Source: a virus (lineage: Duplodnaviria; Heunggongvirae; Uroviricota; Caudoviricetes). Taken from it: 8,509 nt of DNA. The position numbers and the translations under genes are program-made. The notes below the pieces were generated by a model. It made no database searches, had not been told where the DNA came from, and saw only the letters and a program-made list of their open reading frames with translations. Within the stretch, counting starts at the first letter, position 1; each line of letters starts with the position of its first letter. The stretch lies in IMG/VR virus record IMGVR_UViG_648276669_000009; one strand, 5' to 3'. This document shows positions 1 to 8,225 of the stretch, in pieces.

Positions 1-1053
1 ATGACGTTACCACTAAGAGATTACTATCCTATTGAGCGCGCGGCAAAGTTATTAGACTGCGATATTGATGATCTTATTCATTGGGCTGTGACAGGCTGCA
101 TTCGTATTTGTATAAAAATTGAATCTGCATATGGAGTATTAAATATCCCAGATGAAAAAGATGTGGTTAATTTCGATTGTCTGCGTAAGTTTATGGATTC
201 AGAACCATGTAAATCACGGTTATCTGACCTTGATGCCATTTCAGAAAGGGCGGCAGAACACCATGGTTTTAATTATATAAAAACCAAGTCGAGAATTATA
301 TTTGATTCAATGTGCGAATCTCTAAGCCATTCATATGTAGCGCCCAAATTTGGTGACATAGCAATTGATACTGCATTTGCTTTGTTAAATTATTATAACA
401 GGGGGTTATATTATGGGGAAAATTATCACATATATAGTGTATATCGAATAGCAACGGATGAAAGAGCTGTGGCAGTTGTACCACCAGTATTTAAAGGTAT
501 TCAAGAAAAATACCATAAGTATTTCGTTGAAATAGGCGGTATTTTCGCTTTGGGGGGAAGTTTTTTTGCCAACTATGATTTTAATAAGAAGTTTAAAGCC
601 AACCGAATAATTAATAGCAATATTATAATTGCTTCTGACGTTGATATACATATAGGAGTAATTGTTACTGAGGATGTTTCTTTTGATATTGGTGATTTAT
701 ATATCTTAAAGAATGATTTTTTAAAAATACAAAATGCTACAAACTCCAATAGCGAGTTAAGAAAAGATTATGTTAGTCCATTGGCAGATACTTTATATTT
801 GTGTGCGGGTAACAATATATTAAGTTCTGAGGATGGAGAGAAAGATATATGCACCAATAAAAACAATATAGAACGATTATCTAAAACAATGAAGGATTTT
901 TTTCGTGCGATGCTTGTTATTCATTATAAAGAACTCGAAAACAATCCGGTAAAACTTGCTGATATATTGACCGCGGAAGCAAGAGAGGCAGGACTCAATA
1001 TGCGCTTTGATAAAAGTACTATATCAAGATGGATTAAGGCATCATCTCAGTAA
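1..1053 (+). CDS. Hypothetical protein, AT-rich, HTH-like motifs at both termini; possible regulator or accessory (cargo) protein
   Basis: Uninterrupted 350-codon ORF starting with ATG at position 1, so the upstream RBS cannot be seen and the ORF may extend upstream. GC is about 35 percent by eye, against about 50 percent for the neighbouring genes. N-terminal segment PIERAAKLLDCDIDDLIHWAVTG resembles excisionase/AlpA/MerR-type HTH; C-terminal LADILTAEAREAGLNMRFDKSTISRWIK resembles a classic HTH. No catalytic motif recognised. Confidence 0.55.
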   Translation: MTLPLRDYYPIERAAKLLDCDIDDLIHWAVTGCIRICIKIESAYGVLNIPDEKDVVNFDCLRKFMDSEPCKSRLSDLDAISERAAEHHGFNYIKTKSRIIFDSMCESLSHSYVAPKFGDIAIDTAFALLNYYNRGLYYGENYHIYSVYRIATDERAVAVVPPVFKGIQEKYHKYFVEIGGIFALGGSFFANYDFNKKFKANRIINSNIIIASDVDIHIGVIVTEDVSFDIGDLYILKNDFLKIQNATNSNSELRKDYVSPLADTLYLCAGNNILSSEDGEKDICTNKNNIERLSKTMKDFFRAMLVIHYKELENNPVKLADILTAEAREAGLNMRFDKSTISRWIKASSQ

Positions 1054-1148: not shown

Positions 1149-1469
1149 ATGACTCAATCCGCATTCATTCCACCAACTCCAGAACAGCGCCGCACCATAC
1201 TCGCCGAGTATGGTTTTGACTGCGAAGAACGCATCAGGGAAGAGAAGTGTAAAAAGATGACCACGCTTTCACGCTCCCGGCGCTGGGAACTGGAGAAGAT
1301 CGGTGCTTTTCCTCCCCGTCACTCTTTGGGGCGTTGCTCATGTACCTGGCTGTTAAGTGATGTTTTATGGTGGCTGCGTAATCCGCCAGTTATTGCCAAA
1401 GTGAATAACCCATACGAAAACGCCAAAAAGAAAAGGGAGAGGGAATCCGGTAGCGCCAGAGTTGAATAA
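1149..1469 (+). CDS. AlpA/Vis-family phage transcriptional regulator (excisionase-like winged HTH)
   Basis: 106-aa ORF with RBS GGGGGA about 7 nt upstream of the ATG. The segment TTLSRSRRWELEKIGAFPP...TWLLSDVLWWL matches the AlpA-type pattern of a helix followed by a conserved Trp-containing wing. Position upstream of an icd-like gene and primase is as in P4-like elements. An internal Met (MTTLS...) could be the true start. Confidence 0.65.
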   Translation: MTQSAFIPPTPEQRRTILAEYGFDCEERIREEKCKKMTTLSRSRRWELEKIGAFPPRHSLGRCSCTWLLSDVLWWLRNPPVIAKVNNPYENAKKKRERESGSARVE

Positions 1470-1599: not shown

Positions 1600-2015
1600 C
1601 AACCAGTCAAGGATGTGCATTTAGTGCACCTGAAACCAACAATAAGAAACAATAGGCAGGAATGATTATGGCTTTTTTACTCTTTAAAATCAATCACTCA
1701 GCGAAAGTGAGCAAAAATAATTTGCAATATTGCTTGACTCGCTTTTTTGTCATGGCGTATCGTTTGCCCGCACCTCATAAAGCGGGTGCCGGGTTTAGCA
1801 GCCTGAACAATCAAGCGGGTAGCCGCTATATTTCCGTAATGCGGTTTTTTTGTGCCCGTAATTCCACCCTACCCCGTATTATGGCGGGGCGTAATGGGGG
1901 AGCCTTTGCGCTCGCTGGTTCCTTGATTGCCAGTCTGCTAACCCTGTTACGTCCCGCCACCATGTTTAGCAGCGTGCTGGCGAGACTCCGTAAACTTAAT
2001 CAAGGAGCCGCCAAA

Positions 2016-3185: not shown

Positions 3186-5855
3186 ATGAAATCTGACATC
3201 AGAAAAGAGATTATTAACCGTCTTATCCGTGATTACAACTTCAAAGAAGAAAATAACTACCTCCGGTATGGTGTTTGTCCGCAATGTGGAAAGAAAGAGT
3301 TGTTTACCAGCCTTGAAAGGCCGTACATCGTACACTGCGGGCGTGAAAATAAATGCGGTGCAGACCTGCTGACCAAAGAACTTTACCCGGATGTGTTTTC
3401 ATCATGGTCAGATCGCTATATCAGCACGAAAGACGAGCCATATGCAGCGGCGGCAGCTTACCTTCAGGAGGCGCGCAATATTGCTGTGGAGCCGCTGAAG
3501 GGGGCATTTACTCAGGAGCGATACCAGGACAAGGAAAACGGCGAACAGGCCGCTACTGTGCGTTTTACGCTGGCTGACGGCGTGTGGTGGGAGCGCATCA
3601 TAGACCGACCGGAACGCTTCGCTCGCAAGGCGAATTTTTCCGGCAGCTACAAGGGGTTGTGGTGGGCTTATCCGGGAGCGGATTTAAGCAAGGCCAAAGA
3701 AATCTGGATTTGTGAGGGTATCTTTGATGCCATCAGCCTTAACCAGAATGGCATTGCGGCCGTTTCTGTCATGTCTGCCGTAAACTACCCGGATAAGGCG
3801 CTGGAAGAACTGGCGAAGCTGTGCGGTGATACCCCCCGTCCGGTTATCGTGTGGGCGCTGGATAACGGGCGTGCGGGTGAGCGTTACGCGAAAAAACATG
3901 CAGAACGCAGCGCCGAAGACGGCTGGAGAACGGCAGCGGCGTTACCGGGCGAAAACAACAATAAACGCGACTGGAATGATTTACACATCGCCGGAAAGCT
4001 GCGTGGCCATGATGTGAAAAGATACCGTTATTACGGTGATTTATTGTTGGCGAAATCTCCGAGAGATAAGGCACTAATAATGTTTTCCTTTCGTGAGCGA
4101 AAGGAATTTCATTTTCCCTTTGATAACCGTATTTTCTGGTTCAAGCTGGATATTGAGCGCCATATGAAGGCTGTTGAGCGTGTCATTAATGAGCGAAATG
4201 TTGACGAAGATGAAGCGCGCAAAATTGCACTCAAGGAATCCGGCGCTGTAAAAGAAATCGCAAACTGTAACCCAGTGCCGCTTTATTACATTCGAAACAA
4301 TGATACGGATGAAGCATGGTATTACTTCCGCATTACATTCCCGGATGGTGCTACGGTGAAAAACACCTTTACATCAGGGCAATTAACATCCGCATCTGAA
4401 TTTAAAAAACGTCTGTTGCACGTAGCAAAAGGCGGCATTTATACCGGAACGACTACGCAACTTGACGCATTAATAAAAAATGACCTTCCCGCAATAAAAG
4501 AGGTTATTGGTCAGGATTTTATCGGATACAACAAGGCCATTGGGGCATGGCTGTTTAATGATATTGCTGTTTACAAGGGTAAAACTTATGAAATCAATGA
4601 CGAAGATTATTTTGAAATTGATGGCATAAACGCAAAACCATTAAGCGAAAAACCCACATTACAGATTAACTACAAAAAACCGGATGAATTTACAACGTCA
4701 TGGGTGGAAGATCTCTGGCTGGCTTTTGGCGAAAAGGGAATTATTACCCTGGCTTTCTGGCTGGGTTCGCTGTTCAGTGAACAAATCCGGGATAAAGAAG
4801 AATCCTTCCCCTTCCTTGAAGTCACCGGGGAGCCCGGAACGGGTAAATCAACATTGATTGATTTTTGCTGGCGGCTGTGCGGTCGTGACAACTATGAAGG
4901 CGTAGATCCAACCAAAGGATCAGAGGCGGGCTGGAAGCGCACCTTTGGACAGGTCGCCGGATTACCTGTTGTTCTGATTGAAGCAGACCGGGGAGACAAT
5001 GCGCAAAAAAGAGGTGCGTTTGACTTCGATAACCTGAAAAGCCTCTATAACGGTGGCGGTATCGGTGTTCGTGGGGTTAAGGCCAACAATAACAACACCT
5101 ATGACCCGGATTTTAAGGGCGCTATCGTGATTGCGCAGAATGCGCGGGTAAATGCCTCGCCGGCAATTATTGAGCGCCTGATACGCATATACACCGATAA
5201 AAAACGCCATTCACCTGATACCCGACTGGCGGCGAGACGGCTGGAACTCTACCCCGTCGAGAAGGTATCGGGGTTTATTCACCGGGCGGTAAGTCAGGAA
5301 CGGGCGATTATGCAAACGTTCCTGGAAGTATCGCCCTCTGAAACGGAACGCCTTTGCGGATGCGAAAATATTCGCCATCCCCGTATTGCCAAAAATCACG
5401 CGCAACTTATCGCGCTGGTCAGGGCGCTGAAATGCGTTATCGATATCCCGGATGAATGGCTTGATGCCACATGTCTGGAACTGGAACAAATGGCAACGGC
5501 GCAGGTTAAAGCGGCGGCGGCTGACTTGCCAGAAGTGATGGAGTTCTGGGAGGCGTTCGACTTCCTGGACGGCATAACAAAATACGGTGTAAACCATTAC
5601 GGCAAGGGATGCCGCGAAGGGATTGCTATCAGTATTCCGCAACTGGCACAGGCTGCCGCCATTCACCGCGTGGAGATCCGAACCGATCGCGAAATGATTG
5701 AGTTGCTCGGAGCCGGACGTTCCCGACCTTTGACAGGCCGCAAAACCATTCGTAGTGAGGTGTCCAGACAGGCAAACGCCGGAAAAGGAGTAGCCGAAGC
5801 CAGAGAACCAGAAGTACTGAAATGCAGGATATTCAGTTACAAGGAGGGGGCTTAA
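3186..5855 (+). CDS. Replicative primase-helicase, P4 alpha-like (zinc ribbon + TOPRIM primase + D5/SF3-type P-loop NTPase)
   Basis: 889-aa ORF. N-terminal Cys4 zinc ribbon (CPQCGKK...HCGRENKCG), TOPRIM-like motifs (ICEGIFDAISL; LDNGRAGERY) and Walker A GEPGTGKST. ATG 3186 with SD GGTGGAG upstream is preferred over the GTG at 3162 used by the ORF track. The stop overlaps the integrase RBS. Confidence 0.85.
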   Translation: MKSDIRKEIINRLIRDYNFKEENNYLRYGVCPQCGKKELFTSLERPYIVHCGRENKCGADLLTKELYPDVFSSWSDRYISTKDEPYAAAAAYLQEARNIAVEPLKGAFTQERYQDKENGEQAATVRFTLADGVWWERIIDRPERFARKANFSGSYKGLWWAYPGADLSKAKEIWICEGIFDAISLNQNGIAAVSVMSAVNYPDKALEELAKLCGDTPRPVIVWALDNGRAGERYAKKHAERSAEDGWRTAAALPGENNNKRDWNDLHIAGKLRGHDVKRYRYYGDLLLAKSPRDKALIMFSFRERKEFHFPFDNRIFWFKLDIERHMKAVERVINERNVDEDEARKIALKESGAVKEIANCNPVPLYYIRNNDTDEAWYYFRITFPDGATVKNTFTSGQLTSASEFKKRLLHVAKGGIYTGTTTQLDALIKNDLPAIKEVIGQDFIGYNKAIGAWLFNDIAVYKGKTYEINDEDYFEIDGINAKPLSEKPTLQINYKKPDEFTTSWVEDLWLAFGEKGIITLAFWLGSLFSEQIRDKEESFPFLEVTGEPGTGKSTLIDFCWRLCGRDNYEGVDPTKGSEAGWKRTFGQVAGLPVVLIEADRGDNAQKRGAFDFDNLKSLYNGGGIGVRGVKANNNNTYDPDFKGAIVIAQNARVNASPAIIERLIRIYTDKKRHSPDTRLAARRLELYPVEKVSGFIHRAVSQERAIMQTFLEVSPSETERLCGCENIRHPRIAKNHAQLIALVRALKCVIDIPDEWLDATCLELEQMATAQVKAAAADLPEVMEFWEAFDFLDGITKYGVNHYGKGCREGIAISIPQLAQAAAIHRVEIRTDREMIELLGAGRSRPLTGRKTIRSEVSRQANAGKGVAEAREPEVLKCRIFSYKEGA

Positions 5856-5857
5856 AC

Positions 5858-6861
5858 ATGTCGATCAGAAAACTGGATGATGGGCGATGGTTGCTCGATA
5901 TCAGGCCATGCGGACGTAAAGGAAAGCGCGTCAGAAGAATATTTGACAGAAAATCGATAGCTGTAGCAACTGAACGGTACATCATAGCGAACGCCGAAAA
6001 ACGCGAGTTTATACAGGGCTACCGCGACCGGAGAACCCTCAGCGATTTACTGGAGTTGTGGTGGGTTTATCACGGTCAGCACAGGCGAAAGGCAGGCACA
6101 GATAAACAGCAGCTTGGCAAAATCATTAATGAGCTTGGAGCTGACATGTTTGCGGTAGAGCTCGACAAATTAAAAATCATTGCATGGCGATCGCAGAAAA
6201 TTGCGGAAGGGCTAAAGCCGTCCTCAGCAAACAGATATATGAACAGATTATCTGGGATGTTTACAGCCCTGAAAAAGATCGGTTTGTGGGATGCAGAACA
6301 TCCTGTTCACGGTATTCCTGTTCTTTACGTAAGGCAGCGGGAGATGGCCTTTTTATCAAAAAACGAGGTCACATTGTTGCTTGACAGACTGAATGGAGAT
6401 CAACGAAGGGTTGCGCTCTTATGTCTTTGCACCGGAGCTCGCTGGAGTGAAGCCAGCAGATTACACGGAGAGCAAATAGTTCATAACAGAATCACGTTTC
6501 TGGAAACCAAAAACGGTAGAAAAAGAACGGTGCCTGTGTCGCAGGAAATATGTGCTGCCGTAAAAACAAAAGAAACCGGGCGACTGTTTGATGTGAAGTA
6601 CAGAGAGTTTTGCCGGGCATTAAAAAAATAAAACCCGATTTACCGAGGGGGCAGGCTGCGCATGTATTGCGGCATACATTCGCCAGTCACTTTGTGATGA
6701 ACGGTGGCAACATTCTTGCGCTACAAAAAATCCTTGGGCATGCGACAATTCAGCAGACTATGGCATACGCACATTTTGCACCGGATTATCTGGCAGATGC
6801 CATGAGATTTAACCCGGTAGCCAACATAGTGATCACCGAAGAAAAAGAGCCAGCAGAGTAA
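5858..6861 (+). pseudogene. int: Tyrosine recombinase / integrase, phage P2 Int-like, interrupted by a -1 frameshift in an A7 run (reading frame switches at about 6622-6631)
   Basis: ATG 5858 with SD AAGGAGGGGG upstream. N-terminus MSIRKLDDGRWLLDIRPCGRKGKRVRRIF is colinear with P2 Int as I recall it. Box I TGARWSEASRL lies in the first frame; the HxxR motif (HVLRHTFASHF) and catalytic Tyr region (TMAYAHFAPDYL) lie in the -1 frame (6610..6861). The first frame ends at TAA 6629-6631. Joining the frames at the A-run gives ...RALKKIKPDLP..., with the same spacing as the P2 Int junction. Confidence 0.8.
6622..6631 (+). other. A_AAA_AAA slippery heptamer immediately followed by an in-frame TAA; site of the integrase frame change
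   Basis: Codons TTA AAA AAA TAA in the zero frame. A -1 shift reads ATA AAA CCC (I K P) and continues into the catalytic domain. Could be a 1-nt deletion from an ancestral A8, a homopolymer sequencing error, or programmed slippage. Confidence 0.6.
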
Positions 6862-6890
6862 CCCGCAGAACGCTACATTCACAGCAAAAG

Positions 6891-6918
6891 AGGTCAGTTT
6901 CCCGCTGACCTTTTTTGT
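6891..6918 (+). terminator. Rho-independent terminator downstream of the integrase
   Basis: Stem AGGTCAG (6891-6897) / CTGACCT (6905-6911) with a 7-nt loop, followed by TTTTTTGTT. Lies 30 nt after the integrase stop. Confidence 0.6.
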
Positions 6919-7108
6919 TGGCCAGAACCAACGGTAACAGCAATGCAATGGTGGCCATATTGCAGTGGTGCCGCCATCAATTTTTTGCTCCCCTGATTAT
7001 CAGAAAGAGTCAAATAGTGGTGAGATACATTTTAATTACAGAGAGTTAATGAAAGTGAGATAGAGTGAGTGAGTTTAATTAACATTTTAAAGGGTCGCGC
7101 TAAAGTTT

Positions 7109-7426
7109 GGGGGGGGATGCGCAAAGCGGTTACAACGGTTACAAATTTAAAATCACTTATTTTTGTATTATGTATCAATATATTATAACTGGTCTGATGA
7201 GTTACAAAAGCGGTTACAACGCGGTTACATGTAACCGTTTTGTTAGGTTACAGGCGGTTACAGGTTAAGTTTTTAATTGATTGATAATAAAGTGCTTTTT
7301 GAAACCTGTAACCGTTGTAACCGCAGTGTAACCGCAAAGCGGTTACAAACAATATCCATTAAAATCATGTTGTTAAGTGGTGTTTTTGACTGTTGTAACC
7401 GTTGTAACCGCTTTGCGCACCCCCCA
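7109..7426. repeat. Iteron cluster: at least 13 copies of GGTTACA / TGTAACC in dyad-symmetric arrangement, bounded by a 34-bp inverted repeat and containing AT-rich spacers; putative replication origin and/or recombination arm-site region
   Basis: Perfect heptamers at 7128, 7137, 7212, 7223, 7246, 7256, 7341 (top strand) and 7230, 7307, 7316, 7327, 7394, 7403 (complement), plus degenerate copies. Left arm 7111-7144 and right arm 7393-7425 are reverse complements apart from one extra A at 7117. There is a 16-bp perfect palindrome CGGTTACATGTAACCG at 7222-7237. AT-rich tracts lie at 7145-7200 and 7263-7300. Confidence 0.7.
7173..7185 (+). promoter_or_regulatory. IHF-like site (TATCAATATATTA fits WATCAANNNNTTR) inside the AT-rich spacer of the iteron region
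   Basis: Consensus match read from the sequence. AT-rich DNA produces such matches easily, so this is weak on its own. Confidence 0.3.
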
Positions 7427-7653
7427 CCGGATTATGAGGCAGAGTCCCAAAACAACTGGCCTGACCTCTAACAAAAATGCAACATCAATCATTGATTTTT
7501 TTTGGGGCTGTCAGTCACGGGGAGTTGCCCTGTTGTTTGGCAGAAAAATGAAGTATGTACATGCGCGGCGGGGATGGTAAAAAACGTAATACACGCGGCG
7601 CAGTTGCCATAAAAAATCTCTCAAAAGCACTCTTTTTGACGCTATTGTTCATC

Positions 7654-8042: not shown

Positions 8043-8225
8043 ATGTCTTTCCCTTGCCCGGCCTGTGGCGCTTCAGCCCGCACCCGTGGTCGTTCGTTGG
8101 AAGAACACGAACAAAACATCTACAAAACGTATTACCAGTGCAATAATATTGAGTGCGGGGCCTGTTTTTGTACGCTTGAGTCGTTTGTACGCATCACTAA
8201 GCGCAGGAAGTCGAAAACTTCATAG
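8043..8225 (+). CDS. ogr: Ogr/Delta-family zinc-finger late-gene transcriptional activator
   Basis: 60-aa ORF with SD AGGAG 7 nt upstream of the ATG. Cys spacing C-X2-C-X24-C-X4-C (CPAC...QCNNIEC), and the local sequence CPACGASARTRGR...YYQCNNIECGACF parallels P2 Ogr (CPLCQHAAHARTSRY...YHQCQNVNCSATF, from memory). Confidence 0.85.
   Translation: MSFPCPACGASARTRGRSLEEHEQNIYKTYYQCNNIECGACFCTLESFVRITKRRKSKTS

Follow-up and report, generated by a model that had tools for sequence, protein, structure and literature searches.

The closest described elements to the locus studied here are the P4-like satellites (Moura de Sousa & Rocha, PMC8628076; PMC10085698), with which it has in common a P4-type integrase at the border, AlpA, a C4/CI-type immunity RNA and isrK, and also a primase, an Ogr/Delta activator and a location in the E. 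coli chromosome. An integrase lies beside alpha in <1% of P4-like elements and has there been ascribed to neighbouring mobile elements (PMC8628076), and in the literature on two-integrase satellites we found solely remarks that treat the extra integrases as neighbouring elements. A second group of described systems bears on how one integrase gene of this locus is interrupted. The IS1- and IS3-family transposases and dnaX resemble it in their in-register lysine-codon heptamer and in the pairing of a truncated DNA-binding product with a full-length enzyme. According to Sharma et al. 2014 (PMC4066793), the heptamer concerned, A_AAA_AAA, gives >0.10% frameshifting in the absence of a stimulator, background being about 0.055%, and the best unstimulated motifs reach roughly ten times background; the same work found AAAAAAA to be under-represented in all three frames, suggested slippage and indels as the cause, and noted that some IS elements use A_AAA_AAA. 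The part of a recoding review drawn on here (PMC5009743) describes A_AAA_AAA as far less shift-prone in E. coli than A_AAA_AAG, and the word "integrase" is absent from that part.

The DNA analysed here, referred to as the window, is the whole stretch of 8,509 nucleotides of the IMG/VR virus record IMGVR_UViG_648276669_000009. We found that it corresponds to positions 4144-12652 of a locus (L018) on scaffold GL884198.1 of the E. coli TA206 draft assembly GCA_000176595.2, where it forms part of an island of ~12.9 kb at the 5' end of hpt, bounded by a 42-bp duplication relative to the empty K-12 gcd-hpt site. The features of the window that surround the interrupted gene are as follows.

1149-1469, plus strand: AlpA-type excisionase/regulator (domain search).
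1770-1964, plus strand: isrK-like RNA (1770-1851) and C4/CI-type antisense RNA (1877-1964), both from Rfam.
3186-5855, plus strand: Toprim primase gene, 889 aa (ORF, domain and relatives comparison).
6882-6920, plus strand: G+C-rich hairpin AGGTCAG...CTGACCT followed by TTTTTTG, the hairpin being flagged at 6891-6911 (sequence, inverted repeat).
7109-7428, no strand assigned: some twelve copies of the repeat CGGTTACA, in either orientation, flanked by a 36-nt inverted repeat (repeat search).
8043-8225, plus strand: Ogr/Delta zinc-finger late activator (domain search).

The two RNAs, which score 74.7 bits (C4) and 52.1 bits (isrK) and lie inside an Icd-like region, mark a P4-type immunity region, and the CGGTTACA repeat field is a probable replication origin composed of iterons. 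The field is not a P2-type attP, and comparison with the attP regions of P2 and the P88-like phages showed no resemblance. The left border of the island, immediately upstream of the window, carries a P4-type integrase of 399 aa with Arm-DNA-bind_3 and Phage_integrase domains, which is intact in TA206; a P2-family capsid-like gene and a MazEF pair also lie outside the window. When the primase was compared with a phage collection by tblastn, the matches were to P2-like Evevirus, Ralstonia (RSY1-type), Pseudomonas and similar phages and P4 was absent from them, so that the label "P4-like" rests on the other markers found in the island, namely the P4-type border integrase, AlpA, the CI/C4-type RNA and the Delta/Ogr activator. 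Neither psu nor sid is annotated in the relatives L003 and L004, which have the capsid-like gene of the P2 family instead.

The interrupted gene is a second, internal integrase gene that follows the primase and is distinct from the border integrase. Its ATG at 5858 is preceded by AAGGAGG, as read from the sequence, and the primase stop codon ends 2 nt before it, a spacing that makes co-transcription and translational coupling of primase and integrase probable; the hairpin at 6882-6920 is the probable intrinsic terminator that closes this primase-integrase operon. The gene itself is made up of the following parts.

5858-6631, plus strand: split integrase, 0-frame ORF of 257 codons and TAA (sequence, Pfam; identical to EGI24268.1).
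6622-6628, plus strand: A7 homopolymer, in-register heptamer A_AAA_AAA; intact relatives have A8, so that the 1-nt loss maps here (sequence and alignments).
6629-6631, plus strand: 0-frame TAA stop, made from ancestral ATA AAA by the deletion (sequence and alignment).
6628-6861, plus strand: -1 frame continuation, in a frame open from 6610, which encodes IKPDLP... and then HxxR, His and the catalytic Tyr, with a C-terminal tail peculiar to the satellite (sequence and alignment).

The original prediction, that a P2-type integrase is split at an A7 heptamer directly followed by TAA and continues with its catalytic C-terminal part in the -1 frame, agrees with what we found on every structural point. 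The 0-frame ORF runs from the arm-binding N-terminus through the Int_N core-binding domain into the start of the catalytic domain, where it takes in the box I Arg and the β-hairpin Lys, and ends ...GCA TTA AAA AAA TAA; its product is identical to EGI24268.1, annotated as "putative phage integrase [E. coli TA206]", and the neighbouring primase is an exact match to EGI24267.1. The split at the heptamer and stop is read directly at 6622-6631, and in the heptamer register the last base of TTA takes position X, with AAA in the P site as well as in the A site. The -1 frame, open from 6610 to its stop at 6859-6861, encodes IKPDLPRGQAAHVLRHTFASHF...LGHATIQQTMAYAHF and contributes HxxR, His and Tyr, and the 0 frame contributes Arg and Lys, so that the full catalytic set (Arg, Lys, HxxR, His, Tyr) is present in the joined protein, as aligned to P2 Int and PDB 5c6k. 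Insertion of one A yields a protein of 334 aa with Pfam domains Int_N at 57-154 (PF24624, 3.1e-23) and Phage_integrase at 165-308 (PF00589, 7.6e-20). In tblastn comparisons the identity of the joined protein reaches 52.6% with P2 Int and 82-83% with the Int of Xuanwuvirus (P88-like), in both cases over 96% of its length, and together with the Pfam domains these values make the label "P2-type" correct. The predicted joining of the frames with no gap and with the residue spacing of P2 Int is likewise upheld by a gapless alignment of the junction ALKKIKPDLP with ILRRVKPDIP of P2 Int. The nearest solved structures are 5c6k, 5dor and 1aih (HP1 integrase), of which 5dor and 1aih, both constructs of the catalytic domain, cover residues 161/165-322 of the joined protein when aligned with it. 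Truncation at residue 257 falls within the Pfam catalytic domain (165-308). The number of A7 runs in the window is unremarkable (7 observed and 7.05 expected from shuffles).

Intact relatives of the gene are in frame. Among complete E. coli genomes carrying the integrase gene, 29/29 have an intact 1005-nt ORF, and a 91-nt A8 probe matches all 29 with no indel, 25 of them at 100% and 4 with one substitution. Alignment of the window with the intact relatives shows A7 versus A8 as the sole difference at the site. Across the 8.5 kb compared, the window and the closest complete genome differ by 203 substitutions and two indels, one in the A run, which is the only coding indel, and the other at 7496, where a T run outside any gene varies in length. 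Three further copies came from pattern scans, one of metagenome contigs and one that covered a single genome for each GTDB species, and all three are A8. The nearest alleles of all, on the Logan contigs L005 and L006, are A8 and differ from the window by one synonymous base, and the exact joined protein occurs in Logan assemblies (as P0001). The original prediction had put forward conservation of the A7-plus-TAA configuration among homologues as a discriminating observation; that configuration is not conserved, and in-frame A8 is the rule.

The ancestral codons are thus TTA AAA AAA ATA AAA (L K K I K). The exact junction of the two frames and the adjacent TAA are both explained by the loss of one A from AAA AAA ATA AAA, and because a heptamer followed by TAA is the necessary outcome of such a deletion it is not evidence of design. 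In its A8 form the run is the longest coding homopolymer in the window, and non-coding runs of like length (at 1570 and 7496) differ by one or two bases between elements. Phage orthologues have no A run at this site, their codons being AAA AGA GTT, AAG AGG GTC or CGC AGA GTG, and the integrase alleles of sister islands in strains C25 and A36 read AGG ACT GTG and CAG GAG GTG; no homopolymer of at least 6 bases is found anywhere in the C25 or A36 allele. Two G-to-A changes in this lineage alone thus produced the A8 run as a by-product.

Could the missing base be an error of the TA206 assembly, the strain itself being A8 and the draft one base short, as the original prediction allowed? The exact A7 allele of the window has a single source, one contig of the draft GCA_000176595.2, and the allele closest to it, at a distance of 1 nt, is A8. 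Another draft whose accession number is close by, that of M605 (GCA_000176555.2), is also A7, as against 0/29 complete genomes, and several assemblies break or have a gap exactly at the A run, which marks it as a technically awkward site. Drafts of that period were often pyrosequenced, and pyrosequencing miscounts long homopolymers. Against a miscall, the other long runs of the window (G8 at 7109 and T7 at 561, 897 and 1845) match those of relatives in length, no other gene is frameshifted in 20.7 kb of TA206 sequence, and A7 recurs well beyond these two drafts. Contigs were counted as true A7 solely when they read through A7 into TAAAACCC, checked at the sequence level, and exact look-up of truncated forms of common intact alleles yielded further 257-aa entries. 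Unbranched A7 followed by TAAAACCC is found in TA206, in M605 (both GCA_000176555.2 and a Logan assembly of the early run SRR024152) and in SRR7012942, SRR31383135, SRR21141951, SRR31122164, SRR18746540, ERR3991049 and SRR12247610. Besides the two drafts, then, at least seven independent runs that differ in project and year have unbranched A7, which makes it a real allele in nature, with a frequency of a few percent that is probably above the per-site consensus error rate. We therefore regard a miscall in TA206 as unlikely, although it is the most serious of the rival readings.

The few-percent figure is based on the listed cluster members, of which about 13 are true A7 contigs and about 390 are intact; the A7 share is roughly 2-4% of contigs, a rough figure drawn from part of 227 distinct sequences. 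Our assumption that 257-aa database entries are A7 alleles proved partly wrong, in that five Logan contigs (L027-L031) end exactly after the seventh A and an NCBI assembly (L033) has a 59-N gap at the A run; none of these was counted. In a neighbour-joining gene tree, the A7 copies fall in at least four separate places. Three of these placements have an A8 sister 0-1 nt away (the window with L005/L006, L023-L026 with L020, and L032 with L021), and the fourth is the M605 clade, the intact protein counterpart of which (P0046) is present on 171 contigs. The other island genes are intact in the A7 carriers that we examined, except for a split primase in L028, itself a contig that ends at the A run, and so there is no sign that the element is decaying as a whole. 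Between two A7 contigs, L009 and L010, we counted 9 substitutions; every one is synonymous, and 1 lies in the unbiased C-terminal part. We rejected a reading of this pattern as purifying selection on A7 alleles: both contigs were fetched because they encode exactly one and the same 257-aa protein, and the absence of nonsynonymous differences is hence an ascertainment artefact and uninformative.

Recurrence of this kind is also what a contingency tract would produce, in which A8 and A7 would be the ON and OFF states of a selected, reversible switch of the second integrase. At least four independent A8/A7 transitions among near-identical alleles show the recurrence expected of phase variation, the A7 twigs are shallow, and most A7 carriers have an element that is otherwise intact. 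The five contigs that end after the seventh A hint at mixed A7/A8 reads within a sample, which would be the signature of a switch, but such ends could be technical, and the second frameshift in one of them, the split primase of L028, suggests noisy reads. The ON state, moreover, is found in about 96-98% of contigs and in 29/29 complete genomes, the tract is absent from the two sister alleles that occupy the same slot, and a neutral mutational hot spot would give the same A8/A7 pattern. Eight bases are also shorter than typical contingency tracts. Together these observations make a selected switch very unlikely.

A further suggestion in the original prediction was that of programmed slippage, whether a -1 ribosomal frameshift or slippage of RNA polymerase, that would give the truncated protein by default and a set, low ratio of full-length integrase. 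Some features of the site are in line with this: an X_XXY_YYZ heptamer is present in register, A_AAA_AAA over the 0-frame codons AAA AAA, the stop comes next, and a slip would yield exactly the wild-type integrase, from a motif that some IS elements put to use. The surroundings do not bear it out. No stimulatory structure was found 3' of the heptamer, where the 99 nt from 6622 to 6720 have a folding energy of -23.5 kcal/mol as compared with a shuffle mean of -24.1 kcal/mol (z=0.20), and no Shine-Dalgarno-like (GGAGG-like) element is evident 5' of it on reading the sequence. A hairpin picked out by eye, GCGCATGTAT...ATACATTCGC, ~27 nt 3' of the heptamer, is unsupported by the folding statistics. 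Because the break lies inside the catalytic domain, the default product would not be a clean domain. The out-of-frame state is sporadic rather than conserved, which counts against ribosomal and transcriptional slippage alike: it is rare, derived and of several origins from in-frame A8, intact single-frame orthologues are the rule, and the phage orthologues have no A run. Seven A's, furthermore, are shorter than the tracts known to slip efficiently in transcription. Given also the weakness of this heptamer in E. coli relative to A_AAA_AAG, as described in part of the recoding review (PMC5009743), programmed recoding is the least probable of the readings considered, and we think it extremely improbable.

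A 1-nt deletion was the remaining option in the original prediction, coupled there with immobilisation of the element. The deletion is supported, all intact relatives being A8, whereas immobilisation does not follow from it, because the border integrase is intact and the internal integrase has no cognate attP. In the phages, tandem pairs of TG(T/A)CCAC arm sites lie at both attP arms, starting inside the 3' end of int. A motif scan of the satellite for TG[TA]CCAC found no tandem arm sites, and a search for a P88- or P2-type attP, by blastn-short with phage int-downstream regions, returned only chance matches of at most 13 nt. Nucleotide similarity to phage int ends ~34 nt short of where the phage arm sites begin, and beyond that point a satellite-specific tail, PDYLADAMRFNPVANIVITEEKEPAE, replaces the last ~20 residues of phage Int. 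The island is flanked by the att duplication, which adjoins the border integrase gene, and by two tandem pairs of GTGTATCAAT arm-like repeats, which occur at both ends. Islands with three different internal integrase alleles are all located at the hpt site, and the att duplication and the GTGTATCAAT repeats are the same whichever of the three is present. On this genomic context, the intact P4-type border integrase is most likely the enzyme that inserts and excises the island, and loss of the internal integrase probably leaves the island mobile.

The three internal integrase alleles are 47-55% identical to one another, and each is 77-86% identical to the Int of a different P88-like or P2-like phage. 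The window-type allele matches Xuanwuvirus P88_4B11, Escherichia phage Chuche and Citrobacter phage Shae_phiSM, the C25-type allele matches phage P88, and the A36-type allele matches vB_EcoM-569R5 and 705R2. All three have the satellite-specific 3' end in common and occupy the same place directly after the primase gene. From sequence comparison, this arrangement looks like repeated capture of helper-type integrase cassettes that lack attP. One possibility is that the internal integrase acts in trans on the att sites of a helper. Taken one step further, the A8 run would be a partly reversible, leaky switch on an orphan integrase copied from P88-like helpers and acting in trans; A7 variants would then be OFF or low-expression states and not dead genes, and the orphan integrase would, for example, drive or block excision of the helper prophage. 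We consider this combined proposal very improbable.

The A7 allele of TA206 is probably a genuine slipped-strand contraction of A8 at a hypermutable run, one that has left an accessory integrase with an allele that is catalytically dead or possibly leaks slightly. In the satellite lineage, TTA AAA AAA ATA, and with it the in-frame A8, arose by two substitutions as compared with the phage orthologues, and slipped-strand mispairing in DNA replication would then have deleted one A. Translation would stop at the next triplet and release a 257-residue protein that has the DNA-binding parts but that, in the absence of HxxR, His and the catalytic Tyr, would be unable to recombine DNA. A rare -1 ribosomal slip, or an extra A added by RNA polymerase, would restore the exact wild-type integrase, and by analogy with the frameshifting measured for unstimulated heptamers a leak of a few tenths of a percent is plausible. 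The best reading of A7 is as an ordinary mutation at a hypermutable site that has arisen repeatedly, and not as an evolved recoding signal, and as an allele it would be a null with little effect on mobility.

The change from A8 to A7 is itself a textbook single-base contraction of a coding homopolymer, real but ordinary. It does carry a lesson for annotation, namely that a "perfect slippery heptamer plus stop" is what an A8 run looks like minus one base; since one lost base is enough to create that appearance, the first test to apply is whether relatives are in frame. More notable is the presence in a P4-style satellite of a primase-coupled second integrase, in at least three versions and none with a phage attP. 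If the internal integrase acts on helper DNA, satellites would have a means of manipulating their helpers that is new.

How, then, does the locus compare with the systems that it most resembles? In the IS1- and IS3-family transposases and in dnaX the out-of-frame state is conserved, stimulators are usually present and the domains are separated by the shift site, and none of these holds for the site in the window. The likeness to slippage alleles of coding homopolymers is closer and consists of recurrent, independent 1-nt change in a mononucleotide run. Cases of a "savior indel plus low-level compensatory frameshifting", described in part of the recoding review (PMC5009743), suggest that a similar restoration is plausible on the integrase run, but the A7 allele has no known selective benefit and its compensatory product is putative. 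At the level of the protein, the joined integrase has the same Int_N plus Phage_integrase architecture as P2 Int and the Int of the P88-like Peduoviridae Xuanwuvirus P88_4B11, Chuche and Shae_phiSM (334 aa as compared with 334/326 aa). The genes are differently placed: int of the P88-like phages and P2 adjoins C/cox and attP arm sites, whereas int of the satellite directly follows the primase gene, has no attP, differs in its tail and, in the window, is frameshifted. Unlike the integrases found beside alpha and ascribed to neighbouring elements (PMC8628076), the one described here is internal to the island and operon-coupled. The island as a whole, for all that it shares with the P4-like satellites, is set apart from them by the different tblastn matches of its primase, by its capsid-like gene and by its second, helper-type integrase.

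In the sister islands, the slot directly 3' of the primase gene is occupied by no fewer than three P2-type integrase alleles, which are highly divergent, with 47-55% amino acid identity to one another (L016 and L017 are related islands, L018 is the TA206 locus that contains the window and L001 and L003 are islands with a capsid-like gene).

Features of the TA206 island and its relatives
Window 1-1053: 350-aa ORF, immediately following the border integrase
Window 1770-1851: isrK (Rfam, 52.1 bits)
Window 1877-1964: C4/CI-type antisense RNA (Rfam, 74.7 bits)
Window 3186-5855: Toprim primase, 889 aa
Window 5858-6861, L016 4200-5210 and L017 4230-5231: internal P2-type integrase alleles, directly 3' of the primase gene
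Window 7109-7428: field of dense CGGTTACA (GCGGTTACAA) repeats in both orientations
L018 2750-2930 and 15600-15700, L003 4585-4626 and 17533-17574: border regions, outside the window
L003 15384-16655 and L001 1663-2715: gene carrying a P2-family major capsid protein annotation, outside the window

Each allele is matched by a different P88-like or P2-like phage Int, at 77-86% identity, all three end in one common satellite-specific C-terminal tail, and a phage attP accompanies none of them in the window, L016 and L017 islands. Taken together, this divergence, the different phage matches, the common tail and the lack of a phage attP suggest that the slot receives helper-matched integrase cassettes acquired through recombination.

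Five Logan contigs from different runs (L027-L031) have the seventh A of the integrase tract as their last base, and in one NCBI assembly (L033) a gap of 59 N (3772-3830) starts after that same A. These breaks could be a de Bruijn branch signature, that is, A7 and A8 reads mixed within one sample, whether of technical or biological cause. A baseline for the slippage freedom of 7-8-mer runs in this satellite is provided by other tracts: among otherwise close elements the non-coding runs at 1570-1576 and 7496-7503 vary as A6/A7/A8 and T6/T7/T8, respectively; the coding T7 runs at 561, 897 and 1845 are constant in length between elements.

The best phage matches of the primase in tblastn are the P2-like Evevirus ESSI2_ev239 (51.5%), whose primase is not followed by an integrase, and Ralstonia RSY1-type phages (about 45%); P4 is not among the matches. 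The boundaries of the repeat field are formed by the 36-nt arms of an inverted repeat (7109-7144 and 7393-7428, 94% complementary), which has a G8 run at its start; the field is probably an iteron-type replication origin serving the adjacent primase. Both RNA matches lie within an ORF annotated as Icd-like and mark a P4-type immunity region. At the island bounds, 42 bp of the hpt 5' region are duplicated, and close to each end, on the island side, lie tandem pairs of GTGTATCAAT that are probably arm-type sites for the P4-type border integrase.

The 350-aa ORF, conserved in Escherichia and present as the exact sequence on 157 contigs, has no match in NCBIfam, in PHROG or in the precomputed Pfam gene tables, and it occupies the position corresponding to the variable/defence hot spot described for P4-like satellites. 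The capsid-annotated gene of the related islands encodes 350-423 aa at a position that varies by island, and the annotation of these islands includes neither psu nor sid, an unusual combination for P4-style satellites.
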